Of a stretch of 64,000 nt of DNA, positions 6,083 through 50,333 are shown in pieces. The position numbers and the translations under genes are program-made. The stretch covers positions 10,650 to 74,649 of the forward strand of contig CAZLGP010000055.1 in NCBI GenBank assembly GCA_964558905.1, read 5' to 3'. How positions within the stretch are numbered: the first letter of the stretch is position 1; every line of letters begins with the position of its first letter. This DNA comes from an uncultured Thermoanaerobaculia bacterium (GTDB lineage: Bacteria; Acidobacteriota; Thermoanaerobaculia; Gp7-AA8). The notes beneath the pieces were generated by a model. The model worked only from the letters and a program-made list of their open reading frames with translations, did no database searches and was not told the origin of the DNA.

Positions 6083-6120
6083 CATTCGGCGGAACACGGT
6101 TACCGAACGGCCGTGTTCTA

Positions 6121-7404: not shown

Positions 7405-7432
7405 AAGAGAAAAGGTGAAAGAGAAAAACATC

Positions 7433-8566: not shown

Positions 8567-8570
8567 AACG

Positions 8571-8666
8571 GAGTCGTCTCAAAGTCTCAAAGTCTCAAAG
8601 TCTCAACGACCCCGCAACGAACCTCTTTGAGACTTTGCGACTTTGAGACTTTGAGACTCCGAGTCG
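8571..8666. repeat. inverted array of tandem AAAGTCTC octamers
   Basis: (GTCTCAAA)x3-4 followed by the inverted (TTTGAGAC)x3-4, between the MFP stop and the RND start. Confidence 0.8.
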
Positions 8667-8676
8667 AGGCAAGCCC

Positions 8677-14145: not shown

Positions 14146-14335
14146 CGCGCCTCACAGGATAACGTGCCTCGGCCGGCACGGCCGGCAGCGCTGGCGTTCG
14201 CGAACGGCGCCAACGATGTCTCGAAAGGGACTGCCACGCTCGTCGGCTCCGGAGTCTCGACCGCAGAGATCAGTTCATCGTAAAAGCAGTTTGTGCAGCT
14301 GGATCAGGGGATCGCGTAAGATCCGTACCCAATCG

Positions 14336-15106
14336 GTGAGTGAATACCAGTACTACGAGTTTCAGGCCATCGATCGGCGGCTCACCGCCGTCGAGATGGC
14401 CGAGCTGCGAGCATTCTCGACTCGCGCGCGGATCACGTCGACTTGTTTCGTGAACGACTATCAGTGGGGTGGGTTCAAGGGAAACGAAGACACGTGGATG
14501 GACAAATACTTCGACGCGTTCCTCTACTTCGCGAACTGGGGAGCTCACACGCTCATGCTGCGGGTCCCCGCTCCCCTGCTCGATGCGAAGACAGCGGGGC
14601 CCTATTGCGTCGGTGAATCCGCCTCCGTCCGCGAGCGAAACGGAAAGACGATCCTCACGTTCATCTCCGAAGACGATGAACCCGATGACGACTGGGATGA
14701 TCAGACCGCCGCGCTTTCAGCATTGATTCCGATTCGAGCGCAATTGGCTCAGGGCGATCTCCGAAGTCTGTACATCGGCTGGCTTCATTGTGCGCAGGCT
14801 GGAGAGCTGGAACACGAGGACATCGAGCCACCGGTTCCGCCTGGGCTCGGAGATCTGGATGGATCCCTTGAGCGCCTGGTCGACTTTCTGCGAGTGGACA
14901 TCGATCTGCTCGAGGTCGCCGCGGCGGCCAGCCCCGCCAAACCCGCGCAGACTCTTACCCGCAAGGCGATTCAGCAGTGGATCGCCGAACACCCTCTCGC
15001 TGAGAAGGATGGCTATCTCGAGCGGTTCATTGCTGCGGAAGAGCCGGCACTCGCGACCGAGCTTCAGCGCCTCATCGCACATCGGAATGCCGCGACTACC
15101 CCATAG
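14336..15106 (+). CDS. hypothetical acidic protein (starts VSEYQYYEFQAIDRRL)
   Basis: GTG at 14336 chosen because upstream ORF residues are Arg-rich noise. GC3 pattern supports coding on this strand through 14700-15100. Confidence 0.5.
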   Translation: MSEYQYYEFQAIDRRLTAVEMAELRAFSTRARITSTCFVNDYQWGGFKGNEDTWMDKYFDAFLYFANWGAHTLMLRVPAPLLDAKTAGPYCVGESASVRERNGKTILTFISEDDEPDDDWDDQTAALSALIPIRAQLAQGDLRSLYIGWLHCAQAGELEHEDIEPPVPPGLGDLDGSLERLVDFLRVDIDLLEVAAAASPAKPAQTLTRKAIQQWIAEHPLAEKDGYLERFIAAEEPALATELQRLIAHRNAATTP

Positions 15107-15412
15107 CCGGTATGCCTCGATCCACTCCCAACCATGGGGAGGCGAATCCGGGAGCGGAAGATCGACAATGGGAATCGACTGCCGATGTCGTCCGCGCAAA
15201 CAGATGGCGATGATCTGGTCGGCGGGTGTGAGATCGACCCGCTCGACGATGACGGGCACGCCGAGAACAATCACCTCGAACGGGACAGCCACGTTGTCCT
15301 CGATCTTCGTGAACCAGCCGGTGACCTTCTCCGAGTCGTTGTAGCAGTCGACAGTTGCTTCCTCGATCATCTCCTCGAATCTGATCTTCGAAATGCGAGG
15401 AACGCGTGTCAT
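15100..15412 (-). CDS. small conserved protein translationally coupled to the helicase (MTRVPRISKIRFEEMIEEATVDCYNDSEKVTGW...HGWEWIEAYRLW); 3' end undefined
   Basis: ATG at 15412..15410 overlaps the helicase TGA (ATGA). Strong GC3>GC1>GC2 periodicity across 15101-15410. No in-frame stop until 14717, so the end given here is approximate. Confidence 0.4.
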
Positions 15413-18228
15413 GACGGTCCTCTCCGGCGTTGTGACAAACCCCGCAGAATGGCATCGAGAACCGAATCGAGCTCTTTCCCCACGTCCTCGGCGAGAAAGC
15501 GCAGTACCCAATAGCCGTTCTCCTGCAGCAGCCGATCCTTGTGACGGTCGCGGCGCCATGCGGCTGCATCCGACAGGTGCTGCGCGCCATCGATCTCGAT
15601 CGCGACACGCGCGTCGCCGCACAACAAGTCGACTTCCATCTCGCCTCGTGCGTCGAATGCGATCGGCAATCTGGCGTTCAGCTCGAAACATCCCCGAGTG
15701 TCATTCAACGTTTCCAATCGCCGATACAGGAACGCCTCGGTTGCGCTACGCGCCCGATCGGCGCCCACGGCCTCCGAGGAAGGTGATCGAGCCGCATGAA
15801 CGAACAGGTTCGCCAGCGGCGCATCGACTCCGTCGCGAATGAGTCGGCGCACGCTCGCGGAGTAGTCGTGTTTCCAGCCCGGATCGGATGGGAGAGGGAC
15901 GTCGGCCGGCCAGCCGGGAACCGCGCTTGCGGGAAGAACGATCGTATAGCCCACGGCTTCGTAGCCACGGCAACGACGGTCGAACATACGCGCCAGCATC
16001 GGCGCATTCAGATCCGCGTAGTCGTACACCCGGACCTCGCGCTTGCTGTCGTAGAGACGATGGAGCCTGCCGGCGTATTGAGCGATGGTGCCGCGCCACG
16101 AAACTGGAAGCGTGAGCATGAGCGTGTCCAGCCGCGCGTCGTCGAACCCTTCGCCGATGTATTTTCCTGTCGCCAGCAGCACGCGGTCCTCGTCGCGCGG
16201 AATCGCCGCCAATTCTTCGGCGACGGCCGCGCGCTGCTTCCGGCCCATTCCACCGCGAAGGACCAGCAGATGCCGAACCTTTCCTGAGAGATGACTCGCC
16301 AGGCGATCGAGGTGATCGTTGCGCTCGGTGAGGACGAGCGGCGAGCGGCCGGCACGGACCGCCTCGATGACGTCGTCGCAAATTTGCGTGTTCCGCAACT
16401 CATCGTCGATCAGCTCGCGGTAAAGGCTTTGGAACTCCAACCGCTGATCCGCGCTCGCCGAAACACGCGATTGGAAAGGCGTGGGGCGGACGAAGACGGT
16501 GTGCTCGAACGGCCGAACGGCAGCCTGGTCCCGCGCATTGACACGATGGCGGATCGGGCCGCACTGCATGAAGATGATCGGATGATGGCCGTCTTTCCGG
16601 GCAACGGTCGCCGACAACCCGGCGACGAACCGAGCTTTCGCACGTCGAGCCACCTGCTCGAAGCTGTACGCCGGCAGGTGATGACATTCGTCCACGATCA
16701 GATGGCCGTACTCGCCGACGCGATCGTCGACCACTCCCTTGCGCCCGAGGCTCTGAATGAGAGCAACGTCGAGCGTGCCGGTCGCTCGATCTCGCCCCCC
16801 GCCGATCTGACCGATCGCACCTGCTGGCAACTCGAGAAATGACGAGAGTCGCTCCATCCATTGGTCGAGCAGTTGCCGCCGGTGCACGAGGACCAGCGCA
16901 TTGACACCGCGCTGCGCGATGAGCCACGCGGCGATGACCGTCTTCCCGAACGCCGTCGTGGCGGACAGCACGCCGGTGTCGTGGGCCAGCATCGCCTCGG
17001 CCGCGATCCTCTGTTCCGGACGAAGCTCTCCTCGGAATGCGGCGCGGAGAGGCAATCCCGGGAAACGCTCATCGCGGACGACGGGAGTGACCTTCAGCTC
17101 CGAAAGCAGTTCCAGCAGCTCGCCGCGGCATCCGCGCGGCAGGCCGATGTGTTGCGGATGATCCTCGGCGCAGCCGATGATCCGCGGCTTGTCGTAGGTC
17201 GGCAGCCGCATCGCCTGCGCCTTGTAGAACTCGGGATTCTGAAACGCCGCGAGCCGGAGCAGGCGGTTTCGGAGCGGTGGAGGGAGTGACTCCTTGGCGA
17301 CATAGATCTCGTTCCCCAGCACCACCTCCAGCGTACGGGGCAAGCCCGGAATCGCCGGCTGTTTCCGATGGCGCGAGGGAGGGGCCGCCCATGGCTCATC
17401 CGCGTCATCCTCGGCCGCCGGGAAGCGCACGCCCACGATGCGCCCCCTTCGCTCGGCTTCGCGCACGATCGCTTCCACTCGGAACCGGCCGATCTTCTTG
17501 ACGTTAGACAGAAAGGCCCACTGATCGGGATGCGGCATCAACTCGTCGTCGACGAAAACGCTGTTCCCTCGATCGCGAGCCTGCTTCTGCAACGGCAACG
17601 CGATCAGATTGCCGAACCCGCCGTTGGGCAGCGTGTCCTGATTCGGAAAGAAGCGGTCGTACGAATCGAATCCCGCTTCGGGACGACGCTCCATCGTCTC
17701 TGTGAGAATGGACGACCCGAGCCTGCGCGCCAGTGCGGCCGGGATGGCCTCGTCGAAGAAGAGCCACACATGGCCGCCCTCGCCGGAACGCGAGCGCTCG
17801 AAGGCAGCGGGCAGCTCCAGCCGGCGGCACGTCTCGACGAACGCGCTCGCGTCCTCGCGCCAGCCCGCCTTGTCGAAGTCGACGGCCAGAAAGAAGCACG
17901 ACTCGTCGCGGAGCATCGCATACACGCCCGCGACGAACGGCTGGCCACCGTCGTCGCGTCCCGACAAGTGCCAGCGAATCACGTCATCGCTCACCGCCAG
18001 AAAGCGTTGGTGTGAACAGTCCGCGCATCGAATCCGCGGCTTCTCGCAGATCCCTCGCAACCACTCGTTGGCACAGGCCGGCGCGTACCCCGACTTCCCC
18101 GTCTTCCGGCTCTCGAATCGACGCGCGTAGACGTCTTCGCGGCCTCGGAAGAGAGAGCGGAACAGAGCGATCTTCGCCTCGGATGGGGACTGGAGATGGA
18201 CTGTGGGTTCTGCTCGCTCCTGCGACAT
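15409..18228 (-). CDS. fusion of an AEP primase-polymerase, an SF2 DEAD/DEAH helicase and a DUF559/Vsr-like endonuclease
   Basis: N-terminus has a Cys4 cluster (CANEW...CEKPRIRCADCSHQ) and AEP motifs LAVDFD and SRSGEGGHVWLFF. Helicase motifs TTAFGKTVIA, LIVDECHH, LSATVAR. C-terminal RVAIEIDGAQH...WVLRF matches DUF559. Resembles proteins named TOTE conflict system primase domain protein, recalled from memory. Confidence 0.85.
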   Translation of the reverse strand: MSQERAEPTVHLQSPSEAKIALFRSLFRGREDVYARRFESRKTGKSGYAPACANEWLRGICEKPRIRCADCSHQRFLAVSDDVIRWHLSGRDDGGQPFVAGVYAMLRDESCFFLAVDFDKAGWREDASAFVETCRRLELPAAFERSRSGEGGHVWLFFDEAIPAALARRLGSSILTETMERRPEAGFDSYDRFFPNQDTLPNGGFGNLIALPLQKQARDRGNSVFVDDELMPHPDQWAFLSNVKKIGRFRVEAIVREAERRGRIVGVRFPAAEDDADEPWAAPPSRHRKQPAIPGLPRTLEVVLGNEIYVAKESLPPPLRNRLLRLAAFQNPEFYKAQAMRLPTYDKPRIIGCAEDHPQHIGLPRGCRGELLELLSELKVTPVVRDERFPGLPLRAAFRGELRPEQRIAAEAMLAHDTGVLSATTAFGKTVIAAWLIAQRGVNALVLVHRRQLLDQWMERLSSFLELPAGAIGQIGGGRDRATGTLDVALIQSLGRKGVVDDRVGEYGHLIVDECHHLPAYSFEQVARRAKARFVAGLSATVARKDGHHPIIFMQCGPIRHRVNARDQAAVRPFEHTVFVRPTPFQSRVSASADQRLEFQSLYRELIDDELRNTQICDDVIEAVRAGRSPLVLTERNDHLDRLASHLSGKVRHLLVLRGGMGRKQRAAVAEELAAIPRDEDRVLLATGKYIGEGFDDARLDTLMLTLPVSWRGTIAQYAGRLHRLYDSKREVRVYDYADLNAPMLARMFDRRCRGYEAVGYTIVLPASAVPGWPADVPLPSDPGWKHDYSASVRRLIRDGVDAPLANLFVHAARSPSSEAVGADRARSATEAFLYRRLETLNDTRGCFELNARLPIAFDARGEMEVDLLCGDARVAIEIDGAQHLSDAAAWRRDRHKDRLLQENGYWVLRFLAEDVGKELDSVLDAILRGLSQRRRGPS

Positions 18229-35943: not shown

Positions 35944-36213
35944 TGTCGTGTCACTAGCCGTTGCTCCATGAGGGTGTCATCCTGAGCCGCGTAGACGGCG
36001 AAGGACCTTCTCCGTTGCGTGCTGGAAGGTCCTTCGCTGTCTACGCAGCTGCTAATGACATCGAAGATGTCATTCCCCTCAACGAGGCCGGCAAAACAAG
36101 ACGCAAAGCGTGCCCAAGGCTTGGCCAACAAGCGCCGCCGGCCGTGCCGGCTCAGGATGACACCGGTTTCTGCCGCGCAGGCTCCTAGTGTCGTGTCCAG
36201 GCTGACACTAGTG
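35941..36213. repeat. composite repeat region (modules TAGTGTCGTGTC, ATGACATCGAAGATGTCAT, GCGCCGCCGGCCGTGCCGGC, GGCTCAGGATGACACCGGTTTCTGCCGCGCAGGCTCC)
   Basis: Shares ordered modules, some inverted, with 29395-29640 and with the 24522-24699 element. Confidence 0.65.
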
Positions 36214-36291: not shown

Positions 36292-37506
36292 TCAGTGGCC
36301 GGGTCTTTCCACCTCGGGTCGGCGCCGCTCCCGCGGTTCGCCCTGCAGCTCCATCAGCTCGAGACTGAGCGGCCAGGCGCCATCCGGGCGGACCAGGTAC
36401 AGGTGGCCGTCGCGCTCTTCCAGACTGGAACCACCGGGCAGGGGCAGCTGATGCTCCGTCTCGCCCAACGCCATCCAGACACGGCCCTGGTGGAACCGCA
36501 GCGTTGGCTTGGTCGGCAGTGCGCTCCGTTCGGCCGGCTCGCTGTTGACCGACGGGCCGCTTGCGTAGTGACCGTGGCAGTAGAACGGGTCGTAGGTCGG
36601 CGGCCAGTACGTCGCATACGTGGAGCCGTAGCTGCTCGTCGTCCGCACGACAACGGTCCCGTCACAGTACCGGTCTTCGTAAGTTTGCGTGTCCTGGTAG
36701 AACACCCAATAGACGTCATGTCGGTAGGAGAACTGACAGTAGGAGTAGGCGTAGCTTGCCGAGAGGACCGTCCTCGTCGATCCGAGATAGGTCGTGGTGA
36801 AGTTGGCGGTGTCACAGGCATCGCCGATCCCGTCACCGTCACAATCCGCCTGATCGGGATTGTAGGTGTAAACGCAGTTGTCGGAGGCGTCCGAGATCCC
36901 GTCGCCGTCCGAATCGCTGCTGCCCTGGCAGTCGTTCAGACATTGGTAGTACTCGTTCTCGCAGGAATCGCAGATCAGGACTGTCTCGCAACCGGGGGTG
37001 TTCTGATAACACCATTGGCGATTGAGCTCGCAACCTCCGGCACAAGTGGTCGTGGCGGCCGGGCGGGCGCGTGTTGGGCCGGTCGGTGCGGGAGCACCCG
37101 CCTCGAGGCCGAACGTGGCCGCGTCGGAGCGCGGTCGCGCGATGGCGGGATTCGGAGCCGCGAGCCGGTCGCTGTACGCGAAGAACTCCGCCAGGGAGAA
37201 AGTGCCCAGCGTGTGCCTATCGCGCGACACGCGCACCGTGGCGGTGCGATCGCTGCTCGCCAGCCGCGCCAGCCGCGCCTTTCTGACCGGATCGTGCTGG
37301 AGGAACTCGAAGGTTCCGCCGCCGGCGTTCCGGCGGAGCTCGAGGACGTCTTCGACGAAGAGGCGATCGTCGACTCGAATCTCCAGGCGGAGCTCGGACG
37401 GATCGGACCCGTCGGGAAGTGAATAGAGCAGCCGAGGCGCTTGGGGCGCCGCAGCGACCGTTCCAGCGAGAAGCAGACCGACTACAAGCGCAGAAAATCG
37501 TCGCAT
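36292..37506 (-). CDS. secreted protein with thrombospondin type-3-like calcium-binding repeats
   Basis: Signal peptide. SDSDGDGISDASDNCVYTYNPDQADCDGDGIGDACD repeats. Cys-rich. Confidence 0.6.
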   Translation of the reverse strand: MRRFSALVVGLLLAGTVAAAPQAPRLLYSLPDGSDPSELRLEIRVDDRLFVEDVLELRRNAGGGTFEFLQHDPVRKARLARLASSDRTATVRVSRDRHTLGTFSLAEFFAYSDRLAAPNPAIARPRSDAATFGLEAGAPAPTGPTRARPAATTTCAGGCELNRQWCYQNTPGCETVLICDSCENEYYQCLNDCQGSSDSDGDGISDASDNCVYTYNPDQADCDGDGIGDACDTANFTTTYLGSTRTVLSASYAYSYCQFSYRHDVYWVFYQDTQTYEDRYCDGTVVVRTTSSYGSTYATYWPPTYDPFYCHGHYASGPSVNSEPAERSALPTKPTLRFHQGRVWMALGETEHQLPLPGGSSLEERDGHLYLVRPDGAWPLSLELMELQGEPRERRRPEVERPGH

Positions 37507-37869
37507 GAAACCTCCCTAGGTGTGTTCTGTTCGCCGATTGTCGAACCTCAGCGTAGCAGGTCATGACGGCTATAGGTATGGTTGCATGGAGATCCGGCGA
37601 GACGTAGCGTCGCAGCGGGTCGACGTGTCGAGGACGCCCTGCCGTCTCCGCCACTGATCCGAAAGAGCCGCGGAGCGCCGGCTTCCAGCCGGCCGCTACG
37701 CCGCCTTCCAGGCGGCCCGGGTCGGGAGCTTGCGCCCAGCTTGTGCGATCCCGGCGAGTCGCATGCCGCGTCCAGAATATCCAAACTCCAGACCCCCGGC
37801 AGAGCCCCGGACAGAGCCCTCAATGGCGTTAACTTTAGGCTCGGGCACCTGCGCCGGAGGCGCGTAAAG

Positions 37870-38037
37870 AGGGTAGCCGGTGGCGAGCGCCAATGCGCCG
37901 CCACCGGAAACGTGGGCAACCGCGAAGGATCCGCCCCGGAGGGGCGGCAGAGAACCTCTCCCGCCCCTCCGGGGCGGATTTCCTGCACGCCGTCTTCTTC
38001 CGGTGGCGGCGCTCCGCGCTCGCCACCGGCTACCCTC
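37870..38037. repeat. element with 20-bp perfect terminal inverted repeats (GGGTAGCCGGTGGCGAGCGC)
   Basis: 37872-37891 versus 38016-38035. Inner palindromes CCGCCCCGGAGGGGCGG and CCGCCCCTCCGGGGCGG. Confidence 0.7.
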
Positions 38038-38152
38038 TGAGCGGCCGGCTGCAGGTGACCGGGTGAGCGAAAGGCGACTCTGCCGCCGGCTACGCGAGGC
38101 TGATCCCCGGGACCGATCGACGGCGCTATACCTGACGTATACTGCCGTTCGG

Positions 38153-38386
38153 GTGCGAACGACCGAATACTTCGAGAAGAGAATCCGGGATCGCGGCATC
38201 GAACGAGCGTGGTGTGAGTGGACCGTCGACCACCCCATCGCAACGGAATTGCAGGATGACGGCCGCGTCAGGTACTGGGCCTACGTCGAAGAGGCGCAGC
38301 ACTTCCTGAGGGTCGTCACAGAGGCCGACGGCACCTTGTTGAACGCATTCTTCGACCGGACGTTCGAGCGCAGGAGATCGAAATGA
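38153..38386 (+). CDS. DUF4258-family toxin (RelE/ParE-superfamily RNase-like) of a type II toxin-antitoxin pair
   Basis: GTG start at 38153 (VRTTEYFEKRIRDRGIERAW...). 78 aa. Stop overlaps the antitoxin start (ATGA). Confidence 0.5.
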   Translation: MRTTEYFEKRIRDRGIERAWCEWTVDHPIATELQDDGRVRYWAYVEEAQHFLRVVTEADGTLLNAFFDRTFERRRSK

Positions 38387-38976
38387 AATACTTCTACGAC
38401 CGCAGCAGCGACTCGCTCTACCTGTCCCTCGACGAGCGGCGGGCATACCGAGATTCCGTCGAAGCCGCACCCGGTGTGGTCCTCGATTTCGACAAAGCGG
38501 GCCGGCTCCTCGGTATCGATCTGGAGCGCGCAAGCCGCATCATCGACGTGTCCGACCTCGAGCTTCACGAAGAGCCGTCGCGCGCCGCCGCCGAGGCCGC
38601 CCAGTTGGACGGCAGTAAGCTCCGACGGAAGCGTGAAGAGCTCGGCCTCAGCCAGGTCGAACTGGGTCGCCGGCTGTCCGTCAGCCCCAATACTGTCGCA
38701 CGATGGGAGCGCGGCGAACTGAGAATCGAGCACCCGGGTATGTTGGATCTCGCGTTGTCCTCACTCCGCCCGCGCGCCGTTGCGGCGCAGGTTTCGTCCT
38801 CGATGGCCGTTGAGCGCAAGAAAGGTCACTCTCCTCGTGATCGCAAGTCATCCGTTCACACAACGCGGGTTGAAGCCATCGAACACGGTCGTGCGAGCGC
38901 TCGGAGCACCGCGCATCTCAATGCGAGCCCGAAAGGAAAACAAGCCTCCGAGACGGGACGAGCGAGGAAGAAGTAG
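38383..38976 (+). CDS. DUF2283 antitoxin fused to an XRE-family HTH domain
   Basis: MKYFYDRSSDSLYLSL...VVLDFDKAGRLLGIDLE is the DUF2283 signature. Followed by LSQVELGRRLSVSPNTVARWERGE. Confidence 0.6.
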   Translation: MKYFYDRSSDSLYLSLDERRAYRDSVEAAPGVVLDFDKAGRLLGIDLERASRIIDVSDLELHEEPSRAAAEAAQLDGSKLRRKREELGLSQVELGRRLSVSPNTVARWERGELRIEHPGMLDLALSSLRPRAVAAQVSSSMAVERKKGHSPRDRKSSVHTTRVEAIEHGRASARSTAHLNASPKGKQASETGRARKK

Positions 38977-39083
38977 GCTCTCGCCGCGAGCGACGACCAA
39001 CGGTCTGACCCGTCAACCGGTCCCGGAGGGCGACCACTCGAATGGCAGGACGAGGACTTGCCGAAGAGCTTCCGTGGGAACCG

Positions 39084-39380
39084 TCATTCGAACGCGACGC
39101 TCCAGTCGTCAGTCATCGCAATCTCGGCGAGGCACTGCATGCAGCCGAATCGACGATTGGTGCCACCCTCCCACTCGATTCGATCGCGAGACGCATCGGC
39201 GACGGCAATCAACGCGACATCACTCCCGCGGCGGACCGTAAATGGCCAAGACCGAGTGAAGTCCTCGAGCAGACGGAAAGGACTCGTATCGTTCAGCTGC
39301 CATGCTCCGTCCGACTCGCCCCGATTACCGCAGCGCGGGCAAGTCAAGCCGCTTTGGTCTACAGAAACATCGACATCCAT
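39084..39380 (-). CDS. small zinc-ribbon protein (98 aa; CPRCG...GCMQC)
   Basis: GAGGTGAGG RBS upstream of ATG 39380. Four Cys in two CxxC pairs. Divergent from the two-gene operon. Confidence 0.4.
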   Translation of the reverse strand: MDVDVSVDQSGLTCPRCGNRGESDGAWQLNDTSPFRLLEDFTRSWPFTVRRGSDVALIAVADASRDRIEWEGGTNRRFGCMQCLAEIAMTDDWSVAFE

Positions 39381-39496
39381 CCCTCACCTCGCTCCGAGGC
39401 TACCTCGGTGAACGCGGATGATTGGAATCTCGCTACGCTTCGTAGATGGCGGCATCAGCTTGACGCCTTCGTGCCTTCCAGTGAACATGCACACGC

Positions 39497-40336
39497 ATGC
39501 ATGGGCCTGGCATCCTCGCGCGGACACTCTCAACGCCGACGCCCAAGGGGAAAGGCGCCGCGTGGCAGTATCACCCTCGGAGTGATCACCACTCGAAAGT
39601 CGCGTGCTGGGGGATTCTTTTCGATCTCCTGCAAAGTTCGGCACTGATTCGGGAGCACGTCACATCGGGAAGCCTCGCCTTCGGCATCAATCACGAAATG
39701 CGGGACTTCCGAACGGGGAGAAAGAAGGATCTCGATCTCGTTTTGGCAAAGCCGGCTGCCGGTTCAAACATCAAACCATTGACGTTTCGCATGCTCGCGA
39801 CCAAGTGGGCCATCGACCTGAACGAGTCCGAACGAGAAATTCTCGAACGGCTTCCGAACCTAGTCGAGCGTCGGGTTGGCGTGGTCCATCTCGCACTCGA
39901 GGCCAAGGCTTGCATGACGGAACACATGAAGGCCCGTCCGCGACTCTACGACGAGTTGAACTCGAGCCATGATGCCGTTCACGGTTCTGCCGAGATGGCG
40001 ATCGCGGCCGGTTTCGTCATGATCAACATCGCCGCCGACTTCATCTCGCCGGAGATGAACAAGTTCGGCGGCGCACTTCACGTCACGAAGCACGACCAGC
40101 CTCGCGTCACGGAGAAGGTGATCGAGAAGGTGCTCGAGATCCCGCGCCGCGCGACGACTTCGACCTCCGGATTCGACGCACTTTCGATCGTTCTGGTCGA
40201 TTGTCGCAACGACGGTCAAACTGCCGTACGCATCGTCGCGGACCCGCCGGCACCGAGACCTGGAGAGTCCGTCCACTACGCGGCCATGATCCAACGCATC
40301 GTGCAGCTCTACGAGTCGAGGTTCCCGCACACTTGA
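39497..40336 (+). CDS. uncharacterised protein with a canonical PD-(D/E)xK nuclease motif (candidate restriction endonuclease subunit A)
   Basis: KKDLDLVLAKP...VVHLALEAKACM gives D-x(37)-E-A-K. 279 aa. Start could be the internal ATG at 39698. Confidence 0.5.
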   Translation: MHGPGILARTLSTPTPKGKGAAWQYHPRSDHHSKVACWGILFDLLQSSALIREHVTSGSLAFGINHEMRDFRTGRKKDLDLVLAKPAAGSNIKPLTFRMLATKWAIDLNESEREILERLPNLVERRVGVVHLALEAKACMTEHMKARPRLYDELNSSHDAVHGSAEMAIAAGFVMINIAADFISPEMNKFGGALHVTKHDQPRVTEKVIEKVLEIPRRATTSTSGFDALSIVLVDCRNDGQTAVRIVADPPAPRPGESVHYAAMIQRIVQLYESRFPHT

Positions 40337-41154
40337 AAAGGCACGTCAGGACGAACGCCTTCGAGCTGGCCGATGCGCTAAAGCGGGCGAAGCGTCCTCA
40401 CCCACCGGCATCGGGACCGGAAAAGAAGTGGTCCAAAGACGCGCGGAAGGACTGGACGGATGAGAAGCGCGCCTACTCCGAACGCCTCTCCAAAGAGTTC
40501 TCGAAGGCGATCGAGCAGAGCTTCCGCTCACACTTTCCGCAGACCCGCTCCGGTGAAGGGCTCGGAACGAATGCGGCGAGCGCACAGGGCATCAAGAGCG
40601 TCGATGTGGCCTTCAACATCGAAGGGCTGTTCCTCGGCCTGGGCGTCAGTGTGAAGGCGATCGGAATCCCCGAGGGGAAGAGTGGGTACGCGCACAATTT
40701 CAAGCGGATCACCGAGGAGTGGACCACCGAGACGGTGCTGTACCACCGCTACATGCCCGTCTCGATCATCGTCGGAATCTTCTTCATGCCGTGGGACTCG
40801 GTCGAAGACCGCTCGACGGTGACATCGCTGAGTTACGCGGTAGCGAAGTTTCAGGGGTTCCAAGGACGCCAATCGATCCGTGAGGATTTCGAGCTCATGG
40901 AGCGCATTTATGTTGGGCTATTCAAACCCGACGGCGCAGTGCAATTCCTCGACGTCGGTAAAGGCCAACTCGGCCCACGCGAAACTCCGCAGGCCGATCG
41001 TCTCCAGACTTTCGAGCAGGTGAAGGACGGTCTCGTACGCTTGTTCCGCCTTCGAAATCCGAAGCTGCGTGTCCGCGGAATGCCGGATCTCGATCGCGCC
41101 GGCCACGTCATCGCACCGATTCCAGAGCTCGACGAAGCCTTCGAAGACGACTGA
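40333..41154 (+). CDS. uncharacterised protein, translationally coupled partner (candidate subunit B with a degenerate D...SxK motif)
   Basis: TTG at 40333 overlaps the upstream TGA (TTGA). SVDVAF...GLGVSVKAIG sits at the equivalent position, followed by a hydrophobic strand SIIVGIFFMPWD that parallels FVMINIAADF of gene A. Confidence 0.45.
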   Translation: MKRHVRTNAFELADALKRAKRPHPPASGPEKKWSKDARKDWTDEKRAYSERLSKEFSKAIEQSFRSHFPQTRSGEGLGTNAASAQGIKSVDVAFNIEGLFLGLGVSVKAIGIPEGKSGYAHNFKRITEEWTTETVLYHRYMPVSIIVGIFFMPWDSVEDRSTVTSLSYAVAKFQGFQGRQSIREDFELMERIYVGLFKPDGAVQFLDVGKGQLGPRETPQADRLQTFEQVKDGLVRLFRLRNPKLRVRGMPDLDRAGHVIAPIPELDEAFEDD

Positions 41155-41557
41155 CGTCCTCGCACTCGCACTCCCAGATCACCAGCACTTTCCATCCGAG
41201 CTCGCGTAACTGCCCCTGCACGCGTTCGTCACGCCGGACGTTCGCGGCGAACTTGTCCAGCCAGAACTGCCGATTGCGCGATGGCGTGGTCGTGCGCGGA
41301 CAGCCCTCATGCCGGTGCCAGAAGCAACCATGAACGAAGACTGCCCATCTTCGTGTGCGGTTTGCGACGTCCGGTGATCCTGGGAGATCGCGGTTGTGAA
41401 CTCGGAAGCGATGGCCAAGCGCGTGTAGAAATCGGCGCACGGTCACCTCGGCCGAGGTTCCATGCTGGCGGATGCGCCCAAGCCTCTGGGAGGTCGCAGG
41501 ATCTACGACGAGCTCGGGCTTCGACTGGCCTGCGTGACTTCGCGGCGGGCGAGGCAC
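41108..41557 (-). CDS. vsr: very short patch repair endonuclease
   Basis: TSAEVTVRRFLHALGHRFRV...FVHGCFWHRHEGC...GWKVLVIWECE. Confidence 0.9.
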   Translation of the reverse strand: MPRPPRSHAGQSKPELVVDPATSQRLGRIRQHGTSAEVTVRRFLHALGHRFRVHNRDLPGSPDVANRTRRWAVFVHGCFWHRHEGCPRTTTPSRNRQFWLDKFAANVRRDERVQGQLRELGWKVLVIWECECEDVSRLRRLRRALESVR

Positions 41558-41560
41558 GCC

Positions 41561-42841
41561 TCAGATGATCGCACGCAAGGAATCGCCGCGCATCCGCGCG
41601 AGATGCTCTTCGAGCGCCTCGAGAAATCCGGCAGGGAACCGCAGCTTCGCGCGGTAGGCACGGGACAGAAAACCTGCGGTCGCCTTTGCGGAAAGTGGCT
41701 CGGTGTCGAACTGAAGAAAGGCTTGCAGCGGAGTCGCTGCCACGCGAACAGGCCACTTCGAAACGGCTGCCGCGAACCTGATACCGTCGACGTTGTACGC
41801 CGCCGTCGGCCAGGCCACGGCCGTGCCCAGCGGCGCGTCGCCGACGGCGTCGTATTCGGCGGGAGCGCGCAGTCTTCGCCCGATCCACTCGGCCGCGTTC
41901 ACCGTTACGGCGTTGCCCACGAGCTTCCAGCGTGCGCCCCGCTTGACGACGGATTCCGCCGGCAGCGTCCAATCGGCCTCGAAGCCCTGCATCCTCTCGG
42001 CATCACGCAGGTCCGGCTTCACGACGTTTCCGTTCGGAAGAATGATCGCAGGCGGAGAGGGGATGCCGATGGTAGAGCCCCCCTTGAGTGTCGGAACCGA
42101 GTCGACGGCCCATCCCAGGCCCCGAAGCCCCTCCGTCCAGAAGAACCCGCACGCCACCTCACGAAAGGATCGTCGGTCCTCGGGCTCCGCAGCATCGTCG
42201 ACCAGCAGAACGGAACGCGGGTCGTGCAACCGCGAGGCGAGAATGTAGACCCTCTCGCGGCGCTGTGGCACACCGAACGCGCGGCTGTTGACGACGCGGT
42301 ACGCCCACTTGTAGCCGAGTCTCTCGAACTCGCTGAAGATCAGGTCGAGCGCCCGCCCCCCTCCCAACTGGAGCATGAACGAAACGTTTTCCAGCAGAAC
42401 CCACTCGACGCGCTTGCGGTCCAGGAGACGGAACACCTCACCGACGAGACCGGAGCGCGCTCCACTGATTCCGGCCGTCTTCCCGGCCTGGCTGAGATCC
42501 TGACAGGGAAAGCCCGCCGCCAGCAGGTCCGTCTCCTTCGGGAGCGACCGCAATTGGCGAACGTCGTTGGCCCGCCTCACGGCCGGAAAGCGCGCATCGA
42601 GGACCGCGTTCGCGGCGCGGTCGAACTCGCAAAGGAGTGAGGCCTCATGACCGGCCTGCGACAAGCCGAGCTCGATGCCACCAATGCCAGCGAAGAGACC
42701 GACCGCCGAAAGGCCTGGGAGGGTTACGTCGGTCTTGGGCGCCGCGGAGCGCTTCGCTCCAACGAGCCGCAACTGAGAACGTCCTCCACTCATGATGACG
42801 GCCCCCAGTCTACCTCGGCGCCGCCCAACCTGCGGCGCCAT
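41561..42841 (-). CDS. dcm: DNA (cytosine-5)-methyltransferase
   Basis: Motif I LFAGIGG. Motif IV GFPCQDLSQAG. ENV and QRRERVYIL motifs. Lies immediately upstream of vsr. Confidence 0.9.
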   Translation of the reverse strand: MAPQVGRRRGRLGAVIMSGGRSQLRLVGAKRSAAPKTDVTLPGLSAVGLFAGIGGIELGLSQAGHEASLLCEFDRAANAVLDARFPAVRRANDVRQLRSLPKETDLLAAGFPCQDLSQAGKTAGISGARSGLVGEVFRLLDRKRVEWVLLENVSFMLQLGGGRALDLIFSEFERLGYKWAYRVVNSRAFGVPQRRERVYILASRLHDPRSVLLVDDAAEPEDRRSFREVACGFFWTEGLRGLGWAVDSVPTLKGGSTIGIPSPPAIILPNGNVVKPDLRDAERMQGFEADWTLPAESVVKRGARWKLVGNAVTVNAAEWIGRRLRAPAEYDAVGDAPLGTAVAWPTAAYNVDGIRFAAAVSKWPVRVAATPLQAFLQFDTEPLSAKATAGFLSRAYRAKLRFPAGFLEALEEHLARMRGDSLRAII

Positions 42842-42959
42842 CTCACGACCCGATGGAAACGTGTAACAGCCGCAGGCGAAAAGCTACACACAGTAGATCA
42901 CTCGCACCGCAGGGACGCAGAACGCAGTCGAAGATCTCGCGCCACGCCGGCCAGTCGGA

Positions 42960-43352
42960 GTGGAGAATGCGAAGACCTGCCCCCAAGTGGTCGCGGGCGT
43001 GGCGCCGGCGGTGCGACCGACGGGGCGGATGCACGACCGCGCACGACGCGTCCTCCTCCGCCAAAACACCGCGGCTGACTTCCCGTCGACAAACGAAAAG
43101 CGAAGGTGTGACCCCGGGGAAACGTGGCAACCCGGACAACGCTACATCCACCACGCGAGCCGCGGCTCCAACGTGATGCTCTTCGTCCGCTCGTCGAACA
43201 AGGACGCCTACGGTCGAACCCCGGCCTTCACCTTCCTCGGCCCAGCGTCGTATCAAAGCCACGCCGGCGAGCGTCCGACGGCCATCGTGTGGAAACTCCA
43301 CCGCCCGATGCCGCTGGACGTGCTCGGCGTGGCGCGGGTCGCGGCGGGGTAA
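42960..43352 (+). pseudogene. possible remnant of the C-terminal domain of a larger protein
   Basis: NVMLFVRSSNKDAYGRTPAFTFLGPASYQSHAGERPTAIVWKLHRPMP looks like a conserved domain; a DUF3427-like helicase C-terminus is a guess only. Upstream residues are low-complexity. Confidence 0.2.
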
Positions 43353-43389
43353 CCCGAAGCCCCCGGACTCTTAGGGATAGAATCTCCAA

Positions 43390-43962
43390 ATGTCCTCGTC
43401 AGATGAGCGCTGGATTCGGCGTGCCGTCCTGCAACAGATTGACACGGAGCACGGGCGTGCCGGCGACACGGTAGTGAAAGAGGAATTTGTGGTTCGCCAC
43501 GGAGCGGCGCGAGTTGACATCGCGGTCTTCAACGGTCGAATGGAGGCCGTCGAGATCAAGAGCGATAACGACACTCTGCGCCGGCTGCCCGGCCAGATCG
43601 AGATGTTCGCTAGCGTTTTCGATACCTTGACGTTGGCTTGTGGCCTTCGTTACTCAGAAACCCTACTCCGCGACGCACCTACGTGGTGTGGAGTAATCGA
43701 ACTCTCGGAACGAGGTCAACGAGCACTCCGTTCTGCCGACCAGAGTCCGCTCCAGGAGCCGCGCCACATGGTCAAGCTTCTTCACAGATCAGAAACTCTC
43801 AACGCACTTCAGGCTCTTGGCGTTCGACCAAGACCCTCAGCCAAGCGTCGTGATCTCTACGAGGAACTGTTGCGCACCGTGGATCTCACGCGCCTCAGAC
43901 GAATCGTACTAACCACGATCAAGCTGCGAGTTGGAGGGGCACAAACACCATATGGTGGTTAA
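43390..43962 (+). CDS. sce7726-family protein
   Basis: RVDIAVFNGRMEAVEIKSDNDTLRRLPGQIEMFASVFD matches the remembered sce7726 signature (EIKSD.D.L.RL..Q). 190 aa. Confidence 0.55.
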   Translation: MSSSDERWIRRAVLQQIDTEHGRAGDTVVKEEFVVRHGAARVDIAVFNGRMEAVEIKSDNDTLRRLPGQIEMFASVFDTLTLACGLRYSETLLRDAPTWCGVIELSERGQRALRSADQSPLQEPRHMVKLLHRSETLNALQALGVRPRPSAKRRDLYEELLRTVDLTRLRRIVLTTIKLRVGGAQTPYGG

Positions 43963-44926
43963 TCCCCGCCCGCAGCCAAGTCTGCGCCGAGCCGGTCTTT
44001 CTCGCCTCTCTAGACATGGTGTCGATGTATCTGTCACCAGCAGAGAAGCCAGCGCCACAATACTCTTTGCGAAGACTGAGCATGCGTGCTTGGGCCGGGT
44101 ACTGCTTGAAGCCCTCCCCCTCGTCGTTGAAAACACCCTCTCCGCGCATGACGACGAAGTCACGCTTGTGGGTGTACCTAATTGAAGCGCTGAAGTTGGC
44201 GTTTGGTGGCGCCTCTCTGAAGTCAGCCGTCACCACAGTGTAGTCACCGTACGAAGTTGGGGCTTCGATGCCGCGGCGCTCGATTGATTCCCACGCCAAC
44301 CATTCGTTACGCGGAAGGAGGTACTGGTTGTTTTTCGGGAGACCAGACAGATCGATTGGGAATGAGCCACCCATGATGGTCGCCGATGCCCATCGCGCGT
44401 TCTTCGCAAGAAGCTCTGCAGTTCCCTGCATGCGAGTTCCATCAATCATCGAGCCGAAGTCGAGGAGGACATCAAGGTTGGCGGGGGTTCGTCCGAGTCG
44501 TTCGAGAGTTCGACCGACCTCCTGCAGGAGACGAGTCGATACGAGATCCGCGCTACTGATTCGGATCGATGCGGCGTTAGCACCATCACTCCGCATCCAC
44601 GCGCATAGTTCGTCAAAGAATGCAGACGTGTACAGCGGAAAGACCACATACGGAAGCGCGCCAGCTTCCTTGAGCCGTACGATCACATCGATCGCCGTGT
44701 GGACACGCCAGGAACTATCGACTCGCAAAAAATCCAGAAAGAATGGACGCTTGACACCCCAAGACCCGACCATCGATTTAACTACTTCTCCAGCTGACAT
44801 CAATCGCGATGGAACGAGTTCGAGCAACGGCTTCATGCGAGCTCGCTGCTCGCGAGTCAGCTGCGCGAGAGCGCACTGTTCGGCGACCTTCCAACGCAAC
44901 ACAGGTGTATACATAGTATTAATCAT
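43919..44926 (-). CDS. sce7725-family (beta-family) protein
   Basis: N-terminus MYTPVLRWKVAEQCALAQL matches MYxPxLRxKxxExxAL of sce7725 proteins. 335 aa. Its 3' end overlaps the sce7726 gene by 44 bp, convergent. Confidence 0.55.
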   Translation of the reverse strand: MINTMYTPVLRWKVAEQCALAQLTREQRARMKPLLELVPSRLMSAGEVVKSMVGSWGVKRPFFLDFLRVDSSWRVHTAIDVIVRLKEAGALPYVVFPLYTSAFFDELCAWMRSDGANAASIRISSADLVSTRLLQEVGRTLERLGRTPANLDVLLDFGSMIDGTRMQGTAELLAKNARWASATIMGGSFPIDLSGLPKNNQYLLPRNEWLAWESIERRGIEAPTSYGDYTVVTADFREAPPNANFSASIRYTHKRDFVVMRGEGVFNDEGEGFKQYPAQARMLSLRKEYCGAGFSAGDRYIDTMSREARKTGSAQTWLRAGINHHMVFVPLQLAA

Positions 44927-46094
44927 CCCAACTGACCTCCGGAAATAAGCGCCTGACCTCGCCTTGACCTAGCATGTTTCCTAGTACGCGATACGATCCG
45001 CTCTCATAACGAACTCGCCCTGCAACAATCGCCGGATGAATTCGGAGTTCTCTCGCTAGCAACTCCGCCGCCTGGGGAGAACGAAGGCTGCTGGCGGGAC
45101 TGCGACGCCAAGCGGAGGCAGGGATGAGACGTTCTCTCGCCAATTCATCGGCTTGCCTTTCGCTTTCGTCTGTGGCCGATGTCTCGAGATCATCAACAAA
45201 CACTTGTCGTGCCTTACCGGCCGCGACTATCAAGTGCGCCATTTCATGCGCCAGAGTGAACCAGAACGAATCGATGCGATCGAAACGCAAGGTGAGGCCA
45301 ATTACTGACAGATTCCCGTCTGCTATCGCCACTCCGTCTAGATGGGTCTTCGGCAGTGGCGGCTCAATTACGACCGGTACTCCGTGACGACGCAGGAACT
45401 CTACGGCCAACCTCGGTCCTGCGTCCGCCCAGCTCAACTTAATGGTCTCGCGAAGCAAGTCATCCAAATTACCATCGATACCCGGCGAAGATCGGGCCAT
45501 CGTCTTACCTACGTGGTAGACGCGCGCCGTCCACGCGACAATCGCCTCCTTATCCACCCCGGTCGAACGAGACGTCCGTCTGAACGCGGCTGCGCCACTA
45601 AGTCGGACCACTGGCTCAACATATACGCGGACCGCCTCGGCAGCGTGCGTGTCGAGCCAACCCCGCCGCGCGATTAGAGTAGCCATTCCACCTTTCGTAT
45701 ACTTGACCTTTGCGCGAGACTGAACCTCGTTGTTTGTAATGAGAGCATCCGCGGGAATACCAAGGCCCTCGTTCAACGCTCGGATCATGGAGAGGCTGAG
45801 GCCACGCTTTCCTGAAAGGACCTCCGATACGCGGCTCGGAGAACCTAAGAACTTAACCAAGTCGCGTGGCGAAAGACCCTGTTGCTCCATTCGAAAGCGA
45901 ATCGCCTCAACGGCTGATGCAGGTTCGTGAGGTGGCAAGTGCCGGCGCTCGTAATCCTCGATTAACAGCGTGAGAAGTCGTATGCGGTTACGTGTTGCGT
46001 CGTCACGCGGCACCTCCTTCCCGAGGAGACCTTCCAGCTCATCAAGTGCGGCAGTGTAAGCCTCTGGTGTGTCAAGAATGCCGAACGTGTCCAT
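44919..46094 (-). CDS. HigA-like HTH antitoxin fused to an ImmA/IrrE (M78) metallopeptidase domain
   Basis: XRE HTH (LSPRDLVKFLGSPSRVSEVLSGKRGLS) and HEMAHL zinc motif. Directly downstream of higB. Confidence 0.75.
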   Translation of the reverse strand: MDTFGILDTPEAYTAALDELEGLLGKEVPRDDATRNRIRLLTLLIEDYERRHLPPHEPASAVEAIRFRMEQQGLSPRDLVKFLGSPSRVSEVLSGKRGLSLSMIRALNEGLGIPADALITNNEVQSRAKVKYTKGGMATLIARRGWLDTHAAEAVRVYVEPVVRLSGAAAFRRTSRSTGVDKEAIVAWTARVYHVGKTMARSSPGIDGNLDDLLRETIKLSWADAGPRLAVEFLRRHGVPVVIEPPLPKTHLDGVAIADGNLSVIGLTLRFDRIDSFWFTLAHEMAHLIVAAGKARQVFVDDLETSATDESERQADELARERLIPASAWRRSPASSLRSPQAAELLARELRIHPAIVAGRVRYESGSYRVLGNMLGQGEVRRLFPEVSWDD

Positions 46095-46096
46095 GT

Positions 46097-46381
46097 TTAC
46101 AGCTCCCAGCCGTCATACTCCTCATGTGTACCAGCCCGAAGGCATATAACGAGCTGTTCCTCAAAATCGACTCTGACCAATAGCCGGTAGCGCCCGCCCT
46201 TGATATTGAAAATGATCCGGTTCTTCGAGATGAAGCTAGCATGCTGATAACGCAACTTGATGTCCTGGGGCGTCCTCCAAATCCCGGTCAGAACCTCGGA
46301 TTCCCAAGCAGCCAATTGAGGCCTCGCGTCGGCGTGAATGCGACTGAAATCTCGCAGCACCTGCTTTCCAATAAGCTTCAT
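46097..46381 (-). CDS. higB: type II toxin-antitoxin HigB-family toxin
   Basis: MKLIGKQVLRDF...NRIIFNIKGGRYRLLVRVDFEEQLVICLRAGTHEEYD. Confidence 0.8.
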   Translation of the reverse strand: MKLIGKQVLRDFSRIHADARPQLAAWESEVLTGIWRTPQDIKLRYQHASFISKNRIIFNIKGGRYRLLVRVDFEEQLVICLRAGTHEEYDGWEL

Positions 46382-46505: not shown

Positions 46506-49385
<2,880 letters not shown>

Positions 49386-49872
49386 TGGAACTCTCCTTCT
49401 CTCAACACACGCTCACACAGCTGTAGAACAAAAAAAGTAGAGGAAGGCAGTTCGACTACCGTACGAAGGAAATCGGCCGGCTAGAGCTCCGCGGACCTTT
49501 TACGGAACGCTGCCGGGACTCCGATGTCCCTCAAATCGAACTTCCGTCCCCTACCTCCCCCGACACTGCCTTGAACACAGATGTTCGCGGCGAAAACTGC
49601 GATGAAAAAAATCCCCGGGCCCCCTTCAGGGACGGGGATGACAACCTACCGAAATGCAGGACGAACGAACCGGGTAGAAGGGGTTTTCGGCACCGACGAC
49701 TTCACTTTCACCGTCACCTGATAATCGCGAATCTGCAGCGAGACCGACCGGACGGGAGAGCGGTTTTCAGGACGCGTCGATAGCTTGAAATCCTTCATAG
49801 TCCTCCCTCACTTCACCAGGTTGTTTTCGATGGTGACAAGCTACGCCCGCATACCGGTGAAGTCAAGGGGGC

Positions 49873-49920
49873 ACCACTACATCTAGTGGTGTCGTGCACA
49901 CGAAACACAACATCTCGCGT
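49873..49920. promoter_or_regulatory. candidate tandem NrdR boxes in the nrdJ leader
   Basis: CACCACTACATCTAGTGGTG is a near-perfect palindrome matching the NrdR consensus acaCwAtATaTwGtgt. A weaker second box ACACAACATCTCGCGT lies about 30 bp away. Both are about 490 bp upstream of the nrdJ ATG. Confidence 0.3.
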
Positions 49921-50287
49921 AAGTGATTGATTTCCAAGAAGTTCCATGGTTGGGTCGGCTTCCCGCCTAGGGGTGATTTTCCACCCGGCATCCACCGCTT
50001 ATCCGCGACTTTCCCGGAGGAATTCCACAGGCTTTTGCACAGGGGCGTTTTCGCGGAATCCTCAGTAAATCCGCGCGATTTTCACCTGTTTTGCACATGA
50101 TTTTCGTGGGCAATATCAGCGGATTCGTAGTGCGCCTTTTCATCAACTTTTTCGTTCGTTTTCCTCCCGAAAAAAGGGCGAAAAGCAAGCGGAATCCATA
50201 ATCTGCGGAAAAGTGGTTTCCAGCGGCCTCGACCACCACCGGTAGGGGTTCCGGGGAGCAGTGCACACAGAATGTGGCACGTGGAAC

Positions 50288-50333
50288 AATTTACCGGGTG
50301 CTGAGTGCTGAGTGCTGAGTGCTGGATGCTGAG
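50288..50333. repeat. tandem (GTGCTGAG)n array
   Basis: GGTGCTGAGTGCTGAGTGCTGAGTGCTGGATGCTGAGTCAG, abutting the stop of the membrane gene. Confidence 0.8.

Follow-up and report, generated by a model that had tools for sequence, protein, structure and literature searches.

A likely mosaic of restriction-modification and PD-lambda-2 genes beside nrdJ in an uncultured Thermoanaerobaculia bacterium

Introduction

Is a compact run of defence-like genes in a bacterial chromosome one acquired island, or a set of modules that came to lie side by side at different times? The question is raised by a locus in an uncultured Thermoanaerobaculia bacterium (assembly GCA_964558905.1, contig CAZLGP010000055.1), of which we analysed a stretch of 64,000 nucleotides, here called the window, with a G+C (GC) content of 64.8%. 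An initial annotation, made from the letters of the sequence, had listed toxin-antitoxin (TA), restriction and other defence genes at 38153–46381 and had taken them for a horizontally acquired defence islet of reduced GC content. When we scanned the islet genes with Pfam, NCBIfam and PADLOC models, nearly every listed gene was found in its place, and a compact cluster of defence and addiction modules was borne out. The grouping of the genes came out differently. The region holds a type II restriction-modification (R-M) module with two predicted nucleases and a predicted PD-lambda-2 operon, and it is likely a mosaic of independent selfish and defence modules that accrued at different times in a variable slot downstream of nrdJ.

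Results

One R-M module with two predicted nucleases

The genes between 39084 and 42841 are read here as one five-gene type II R-M module that recurs as a unit elsewhere. It opens with a Zn-ribbon open reading frame (ORF) of 98 amino acids (aa) on the minus strand (39084–39380) with four invariant cysteines, C14, C17, C80 and C83. On the plus strand follow unkA (39497–40336, 279 aa), a predicted PD-(D/E)xK endonuclease, and unkB (40333–41154, 273 aa), a second predicted nuclease, both named as such from motifs and context. The last two genes, on the minus strand, encode a very-short-patch repair endonuclease, Vsr (41108–41557, 149 aa; TIGR00632, E = 1.1e-34, 119.3 bits against a cut-off of 97.85; PF03852), and a C5 cytosine DNA methyltransferase, here called dcm (41561–42841, 403–426 aa; PF00145, 5.4e-49, 167.8 bits; TIGR00675, 1.2e-46, 159.8 bits against a cut-off of 100.65; PADLOC MTase_II PDLC03324, 4.9e-145). 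The genes are tightly packed: the start of unkB overlaps the stop of unkA by 4 bp, the 3' end of vsr overlaps unkB convergently by 47 bp, and vsr begins 3 nt past the dcm stop. The vsr-dcm pair of the initial annotation thus stands, but its listing of the zinc ribbon, an unknown PD-(D/E)xK pair and vsr-dcm as separate items does not.

Neither unkA nor unkB matches a Pfam, NCBIfam or PADLOC model. The homologues of unkA (2947 clusters at 90% identity) and of unkB (79 clusters) are all named 'hypothetical', and none carries a Pfam domain; nor does any of the 236 unkB representatives at 50% identity from a full HMMER scan. A Pfam scan of distant unkB relatives likewise gave no unkB family, its sole finding being one Vsr fusion. 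A predicted protein of 448 aa, P0244, joins an N-terminal Vsr domain to a C-terminal unkB-like domain, and may be a genuine fusion or else an artefact of read-through in gene calling.

What characterises both families is their company. In every context examined, seven of them independent, unkA adjoins vsr and a C5-methylase gene, and the identities of the three proteins to those of the window track each other. For unkA, Vsr and Dcm these are 80, 76 and 80% in contig L097, 79, 75 and 78% in L098, 74, 72 and 71% in L083, 74, 74 and 71% in L090, 57.5, 50 and 59.6% in L082 (where dcm is a fragment), 55, 55 and 63% in L084, and 51, 46 and 53% in L087. The simplest case is L084, a minimal insertion of unkA facing vsr and dcm between housekeeping genes. 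For its part, unkB is invariably found with dcm and vsr, in varying gene order. In L082, which is Anaeromyxobacter oryzae AP025591.1, two units stand in tandem at 6001–10473, unkA-vsr-dcm (fragment) and unkB-like-vsr-dcm; genes for an MmeI-type enzyme and an SNF2 helicase and an HNH gene are their neighbours, so that the locus is a defence island in which one methylase is decaying.

The AlphaFold2 models of both proteins have an alpha-beta-beta-beta-alpha-beta core. That of unkA (mean confidence, pLDDT, 95) carries the invariant residues D80 and E135-A-K137, a D...ExK motif, and that of unkB (pLDDT 86) carries invariant D91, S106-V-K108, E114, E128 and E129, a D...SxK...E motif. The weak Foldseek matches of unkA are mostly restriction endonucleases (REases) and other PD-(D/E)xK nucleases (BbvCI, SgrAI, Cas4, Can2), and those of unkB include Kpn2I and MspJI. 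The invariant D...S-x-K of unkB, with conserved Glu residues on the following helix, is also a likeness to the CCGG-family enzymes Cfr10I, NgoMIV, Kpn2I and SgrAI, and presumably resembles the variant active site of that family. Kpn2I (for unkB) and SgrAI (for unkA) are among the weak Foldseek matches at E-values of 0.1–0.24 and TM-scores of at most 0.27, which is not significant, and a profile search of PDB sequences was empty, so that membership of either protein in the CCGG family is not established. An hhalign comparison showed no homology between unkA and unkB, which rules out a paralogous heterodimer of the BbvCI kind.

We infer from the linkage and the motifs that unkA is a PD-(D/E)xK restriction endonuclease cognate to Dcm, and the two families are very probably restriction nucleases of Dcm-Vsr systems. 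Because of the dcm-vsr linkage, the AlphaFold cores with their invariant motifs, and the lack of homology between unkA and unkB, we read the whole as a single type II R-M cassette with two predicted nucleases. It resembles type II systems in which a C5-methyltransferase has a linked Vsr (the Dcm-Vsr type) in having a C5-methyltransferase, a Vsr and a neighbouring nuclease gene in a compact mobile cassette; the comparison is with XorII, NaeI and HpaII, which we take to be such M-V-R (methylase, Vsr, restriction enzyme) systems. It differs from them in that its nucleases come from two unannotated families without a solved relative, and in having two unrelated nuclease genes per methylase, plus the Zn-ribbon ORF.

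A candidate controller and its palindrome

The Zn-ribbon ORF has no match among the Pfam, NCBIfam and PADLOC families, and a search of it against plasmids gave none. Homologues with 38–49% protein identity adjoin the same R-M module in L097, L098/L099 and L090, and the four cysteines are invariant across their alignment. Just upstream of the start of the ORF, at 39394–39408, lies a 15-bp palindrome, CCGAGGCTACCTCGG, which is identical base for base in all lineages with the Zn ORF beside the R-M genes (L097, 7128–7142; L098, 9066–9080; L090, 3679–3693), even though the Zn proteins of these lineages share just 41–49% identity with that of the window. It is kept even in L090, where the gene order is rearranged. 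Downstream of it is a conserved promoter-like element for unkA, TTGACG...GAACAT.

On these alignments CCGAGGCTACCTCGG is a candidate operator or 5' untranslated-region hairpin, and the Zn-ribbon ORF is proposed as a candidate controller of the R-M module. The arrangement is like the control of R-M systems by C proteins and C boxes, in that a small gene and the nuclease operon diverge from a common control region that contains an invariant palindrome. The window protein differs in being a four-Cys Zn-ribbon, not a helix-turn-helix (HTH) C protein, and its binding to DNA is putative.

A predicted PD-lambda-2 operon with a convergent cII-like gene

The PADLOC scan also matched all three components of PD-lambda-2 in the right-hand part of the islet, along with MTase_II and 'cll'. 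On the minus strand, in the order A-B-C, lie a HigB-like protein (A; 46097–46381, 94 aa; PD-Lambda-2_A, 1.2e-33, positions 1–92 of 94; PF09907, 1.5e-21, 76.9 bits against 27), a protein with an Xre-type HTH and an ImmA/IrrE (M78) metallopeptidase domain (B; 44919–46094, 391 aa; PD-Lambda-2_B, 3.1e-116, positions 1–398 of 402), and a Beta protein (C; 43919–44926, 335 aa; PF14350, 4.7e-49, 168 bits; PD-Lambda-2_C, 1.5e-40). In B, PF06114 and PF01381 score above their cut-offs and the HEMAH motif is intact. Each of the three PADLOC models is matched over its full length. The gap between A and B is 2 nt, and B and C overlap by 8 bp. Converging on C from the plus strand is a gene for an sce7726 or phage P4 cII-like protein (43390–43962, 190 aa; NF033832, 1.2e-37, 129.7 bits against 70; PADLOC 'cll', 1.3e-32), with a 3' overlap of 44 bp; PF26915, Phage_P4_cII, is precomputed for a protein identical to it. 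The region 43390–46381 is thus, as judged from its genes, a predicted PD-lambda-2 operon A-B-C with a convergent P4-cII-like partner. The initial annotation had set higB and higA-ImmA apart as a module of their own, which together with Beta are now one operon. It had also named an sce7726/sce7725 pair, of which sce7726 holds, while its partner of 335 aa matched nothing in NCBIfam at E ≤ 0.01 and is the Beta protein; PGAP names such sce7726 partners 'beta family protein'.

PD-lambda-2 was defined in E. coli ECOR42, where B is toxic, A neutralises it, C is needed against lambda-vir and defence is abortive (Vassallo et al. 2022, PMC9519451). The predicted system of the window agrees with it in its three proteins and in their order (HigB-like, Xre-HTH-M78/ImmA, P4 Beta-like). 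The differences are that the host is an acidobacterium, that B is at most ~47% identical to any homologue found apart from an identical copy in a Logan contig, and that a cII/sce7726 gene, which is not among the three genes of the published definition, converges on C and overlaps its 3' end. The two pairs drawn in the initial annotation thus match evolutionary modules; experiments define A-B-C as the functional unit, and cII goes with Beta.

Beta and cII also meet in the gop-beta-cII system of satellite P4, which is TA-like and protects against lambda and P1 (Rousset et al. 2022, PMC9122126). In the P4 record, NC_001609, gop and beta run towards a convergent cII, and PGAP names the latter two 'beta family' and 'sce7726 family'. 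As in P4, the Beta and cII homologues of the window converge, and a toxin-type gene precedes Beta on its strand. The window differs in that it has no gop (no gene of the region matched a gop model in the PADLOC scan) and holds the HigB-like and Xre-M78 pair in its position, in its shorter cII (190 aa against 264 aa in P4), and in the 44-bp overlap of two genes that a terminator parts in P4.

Plasmids and prophages of E. coli, Rhizobiaceae, Rhodococcus and Bacillus also carry the convergent, 3'-overlapping Beta/sce7726 pair, which a toxin-like module may or may not precede. Two rhizobial plasmid loci, L094 (A. tumefaciens pAt1D1460, 2574–5934) and L095 (S. terangae, 2458–5761), have sce7726 facing beta, an Xre(-M78-like) gene and an unannotated ORF of 132–162 aa in the HigB position; one of them has a reverse transcriptase and a helicase as neighbours. 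Nearly all metagenomic loci with a B homologue have the A-B pair, and 15 have a Beta match; the convergent cII was present in six of the eight that had a full Beta gene and enough downstream sequence, and at none of the loci without Beta.

Between dcm and the cII-like gene lies a plus-strand ORF (42960–43352) that the initial annotation had called a decayed conserved-domain remnant. It matches the C-terminal end of DUF3427 (PF11907, profile positions 207–274 of 280) at E = 1.4e-4, with 21.7 bits below the cut-off of 27.7, and has a host-like GC content at third codon positions (GC3) of 0.82. Its short match is consistent with a dead DUF3427 gene fragment.

Composition and history of the locus

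Composition sets the two halves apart. The PD-lambda-2/cII segment (43390–46381) has a GC content of 56.6%, 5.5 standard deviations below 3-kb windows outside the islet (z = -5.5), and the R-M part (39084–42841) is just marginally low, with 62.6% (z = -2.05). GC3 falls stepwise, from 0.84–0.92 in core genes to 0.78 in the secreted-protein gene to the left of the islet, 0.72 in the TA pair, 0.66–0.78 in the R-M genes and 0.58–0.64 in the PD-lambda-2/cII genes. The reported drop in GC at 43.39–46.38 kb was thereby confirmed, against a baseline of 65.4% in the remaining window, not of about 68%; the tetranucleotide deviation of the islet was weak (z ≤ 2.2).

To the right of the islet is nrdJ (46506–49385, minus strand; PF02867, 9e-141), a conserved core gene for a class II ribonucleotide reductase, which is 89% identical to nrdJ of metagenome-assembled genomes of uncultured Thermoanaerobaculia and other Acidobacteriota. 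The genes to the right of nrdJ are syntenic with relatives as far as ~63 kb, and in 80 relatives synteny stops at the nrdJ stop codon (46505/46506), which is the right-hand boundary, as first proposed. The islet block is missing at the nrdJ loci of these 80, except for one Zn-ORF homologue. What follows nrdJ on its 3' side varies among relatives and is often rich in defence genes. On the other side, none of the window from 1 to 38 kb lies within 10 kb of nrdJ in the 80 relatives, so synteny sets no left boundary.

Two lineages among the closest by the nrdJ C-terminus, L097 and L098/L099, have the R-M module (Zn-unkA-unkB-vsr-dcm) at the same place downstream of nrdJ. Their R-M proteins are 73–81% identical to those of the window and the neighbouring nrdJ segment 77–84%, and in all three lineages the R-M GC3 (0.70–0.79) lies below that of nrdJ (0.92–0.94). 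Given the shared locus and the nrdJ-like divergence, the R-M module is either an older resident or has been repeatedly exchanged there. Between dcm and nrdJ, L097 has a gap of ~320 bp and L098/L099 an unrelated gene of 553 aa; in the window this slot holds the DUF3427 remnant, cII and PD-lambda-2. That genome-specific part, 42.85–46.5 kb, coincides with the GC minimum. Since it has the lowest GC, lies between dcm and nrdJ and is missing from the relatives that share the R-M module, the PD-lambda-2/cII segment with the remnant is the best candidate for the latest insertion.

An exact look-up of the nrdJ protein gave no record, and the same-species comparison comprised one Logan contig, L081, assembled independently, which has an identical block from the 3' end of nrdJ to 38014. 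The gene juxtaposition is therefore not a binning artefact, and an assembly chimera as the source of the GC drop is ruled out, since L081 covers nrdJ through the TA pair.

Horizontal acquisition, as first suggested for the whole islet, is thus likely for 43.4–46.4 kb, which is compositionally foreign and unique to this genome, but not in the same way for the R-M half; presence of the block at the same locus in relatives, the sign that the initial annotation had named for an old core region, was found for that half. With the modules regrouped, half of the islet shared at the locus by relatives and no mobility signatures, the original interpretation is only partly supported.

Left edge and flanks

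The left edge is formed by a small ORF on the plus strand (38153–38386, about 78 aa from a GTG at 38153, the start being uncertain), a putative toxin partner, and a 197-aa protein with DUF2283 and an Xre-type HTH (38383–38976, plus strand; PF10049, 1.9e-12, 47.6 bits against 23; PF01381, HTH_3, 3.1e-9), a putative antitoxin or regulator. The two genes overlap by 4 bp. On Rhodothermus marinus plasmids a homologue of the small ORF (47% identity) is directly followed by a DUF2283 gene, and we infer that 38153–38976 is a two-gene TA-like pair. Of the DUF4258/DUF2283-HTH pair first reported, the second member stands; for the first, no DUF4258 match was found in Pfam (168-aa ORF at E ≤ 0.01; 88-aa C-terminal part at E ≤ 1), and the 168-aa ORF that covers it has no NCBIfam match. 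The pair resembles putative DUF4258/DUF2283 TA pairs in its small upstream ORF, in the 4-bp overlap with the DUF2283 gene and in a pairing kept on the Rhodothermus plasmids, and differs in the lack of a DUF4258 match and in the extra Xre HTH and long basic tail of the DUF2283 protein.

Left of the pair, a near-perfect 171-nt palindrome (37868–38038; nested inverted repeats of 23/23, 15/15 and 23/24 nt) occurs once in the window, in a gene-poor gap of 650 bp. Its predicted DNA fold has an energy of -95.4 kcal/mol (z = -12.3), and L081 ends inside it, at window position 38014. It could be a boundary, a terminator or an element like a miniature inverted-repeat transposable element (MITE). Across the gap lies the gene for a secreted-type protein with a visible signal peptide (36292–37506, minus strand), which had been taken as the other bound of the islet; its TSP_3 match is weak (19.6 bits, below the cut-off).

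The left flank from 26 to 36 kb is housekeeping-like, with a GC3 of 0.85–0.91 (a Na/Ca exchanger, an LD-carboxypeptidase, an M20 peptidase, two Band-7 proteins and a DnaJ protein). Nested inverted repeats with arms of 36 nt (83%) and 17 nt (100%) lie at 35973–36164, in the space that separates the DnaJ-domain gene from the 3' end of the TSP3-like gene. Directly upstream of nrdJ, 49400–50300 has a GC content of 57–59%, no convincing ORF and no Rfam match, riboswitches included. GC dips a second time, more mildly (~60%), at 14000–15500, where the ORF at 14066–15103 has a GC3 of 0.69 against 0.85–0.9 in its neighbours and may be of foreign origin. A promoter and terminator scan gave no more sites than in shuffled sequence.

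Discussion

The modules of this mosaic can be given probable roles. In the R-M module, the C5-methyltransferase would mark a DNA site. Vsr repairs T:G mismatches left by deamination of 5-methylcytosine in Dcm/Vsr pairs, and would do so here at the Dcm site. To judge from its motifs and its strict, co-varying linkage, unkA would cut unmethylated incoming DNA; unkB, which is nuclease-like, unrelated to unkA and coupled to it in translation, would most likely cut the same site, the one that Dcm protects. It was probably gained through a merger of two tandem R-M units with the loss of one methylase, of which Anaeromyxobacter oryzae would represent the intermediate state. The divergent Zn-ribbon ORF and the invariant palindrome may form a controller that delays nuclease expression. 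Going by the published roles of A, B and C in E. coli, 43390–46381 would act as a PD-lambda-2 abortive-infection system, in which Beta/cII is the same two-gene core as in P4 gop-beta-cII and the A-B pair takes the position of gop. This segment and the DUF3427 remnant would be the latest insertion, between dcm and nrdJ.

Several results weigh against this account. Foldseek searches (of PDB for both nuclease models, and of BFVD for unkB) gave nothing at E ≤ 1e-3, the best values being 6.7e-3 and 7.1e-3 with low TM-scores, and PDB sequence searches with single sequences and profiles were empty for both proteins, so that the nuclease assignment rests on motifs, topology and context. Palindrome depletion in the 64-kb window was uninformative for the R-M site, with just a generic depletion of CTAG. 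No toxin family model matches the TA pair. The E. coli PD-lambda-2 clone reached just ~390 bp past the three genes, which makes cII probably dispensable for defence there. A-B pairs are common without Beta, and Beta/cII pairs without A-B; functional coupling in the window is therefore argued from operon structure and from subtype-specific hidden Markov model scores. Nor does the locus have the usual marks of mobility: the window has no tRNA or tmRNA and its Rfam scan was empty, flanking direct repeats or att sites across 35.9–46.6 kb amount to short two-copy matches of chance quality, and no integrase was found among the genes covered by the family scans.

How the two nucleases work together allows other readings. 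A single restriction enzyme, an obligate heteromer of unkA, unkB and perhaps also the Zn protein, would suit the translational coupling of unkA and unkB through the 4-bp overlap, the presence of unkB with unkA in six of six contexts seen, the confinement of the Zn ORF to lineages having the unkA-unkB operon, and the fact that the best weak structural match of unkA is the heterodimeric BbvCI. We nevertheless regard such an enzyme as rather unlikely: most of the ~2900 unkA clusters do without unkB, the two genes are convergent and form no operon in L087/L089, the unkB-like gene of L082 has its own dcm-vsr unit, and the two proteins are not homologous. It is more doubtful still, and would surprise us, if they were no restriction enzymes at all but unrelated passengers, or had some other defence or repair function beside dcm-vsr. 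The lack of a significant sequence or fold match to a known REase would fit, but type II REases are too diverse for family models, and neither the strict dcm-vsr linkage with co-varying identities in seven contexts, a minimal three-gene insertion among them, nor the invariant acidic and Lys motifs on a PD-(D/E)xK-type core would be expected of passengers.

A cassette with two restriction nucleases remains our reading of the left half, and similar questions apply to the right half and to the locus as a whole. HigB and HigA-ImmA could be an ordinary two-gene addiction module with Beta/sce7726 as a separate pair that is merely adjacent. A-B without Beta dominates, with more than 25 loci that have downstream room but no Beta, and with plasmid examples too, and stand-alone Beta/sce7726 pairs occur in Rhodococcus, Bacillus and E. 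coli prophages. Yet in the window Beta lies on the strand of B and overlaps it by 8 bp, Beta scores 1.5e-40 on PD-Lambda-2_C against 1.4e-4 on the generic PADLOC 'beta' model, the A-B-Beta operon recurs in 15 metagenomic loci, and the Beta component is needed for defence in E. coli (PMC9519451). Mere adjacency is thus less likely than a PD-lambda-2 operon and, in our judgement, unlikely. The most conservative view of the locus, that the entire block was inherited vertically as an old part of the chromosome and that its composition reflects gene-specific constraints, could appeal to the shared position of the R-M module in L097 and L098/L099, where its divergence is similar to that of nrdJ, to the lack of an integrase, tRNA or att repeat, and to the weak tetranucleotide deviation. 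It is very improbable. Relatives whose nrdJ is equally or more similar (L001–L004, L011) have none of the block genes and hold other genes there; the same R-M module sits in unrelated contexts and taxa, for example Anaeromyxobacter; the PD-lambda-2/cII segment is in no relative, with its GC 5.5 standard deviations below the window; and the R-M GC3 stays below that of nrdJ in all three lineages. Modules gathered at different times account better for this pattern.

A bolder combination, which we put forward tentatively and would hardly count on, is that Beta/cII is an autonomous, phylum-spanning core with interchangeable toxin modules, and that the R-M genes form a new five-gene architecture under Zn-ribbon control. 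The modules docking onto the core would be gop in P4, HigB with Xre-M78 in PD-lambda-2, and small ORFs with Xre on rhizobial plasmids, and cII would be a fourth component of PD-lambda-2 that has so far been missed, perhaps with regulation by way of the antisense overlap. The R-M architecture would place two unrelated, unannotated nucleases under one methylase, with a Zn-ribbon protein on the 15-bp palindrome instead of an HTH C protein.

The islet is genuine and fairly ordinary, made up of known kinds of systems, and does not overturn current understanding. What is new here is limited to the unannotated nuclease families, the possible Zn-ribbon controller and the explicit link of PD-lambda-2 to the P4 Beta/cII pair. 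A loosely labelled gene list is resolved into three defined systems. One architecture is common to PD-lambda-2 and P4 gop-beta-cII, with a Beta/cII core found from E. coli to Bacillus, Rhodococcus and Acidobacteriota. The unkA (~2900 clusters at 90% identity) and unkB (~240 representatives at 50% identity) families are useful for the annotation of R-M systems, possibly with new specificities, and the 3' flank of nrdJ is a hotspot for defence genes in Thermoanaerobaculia.

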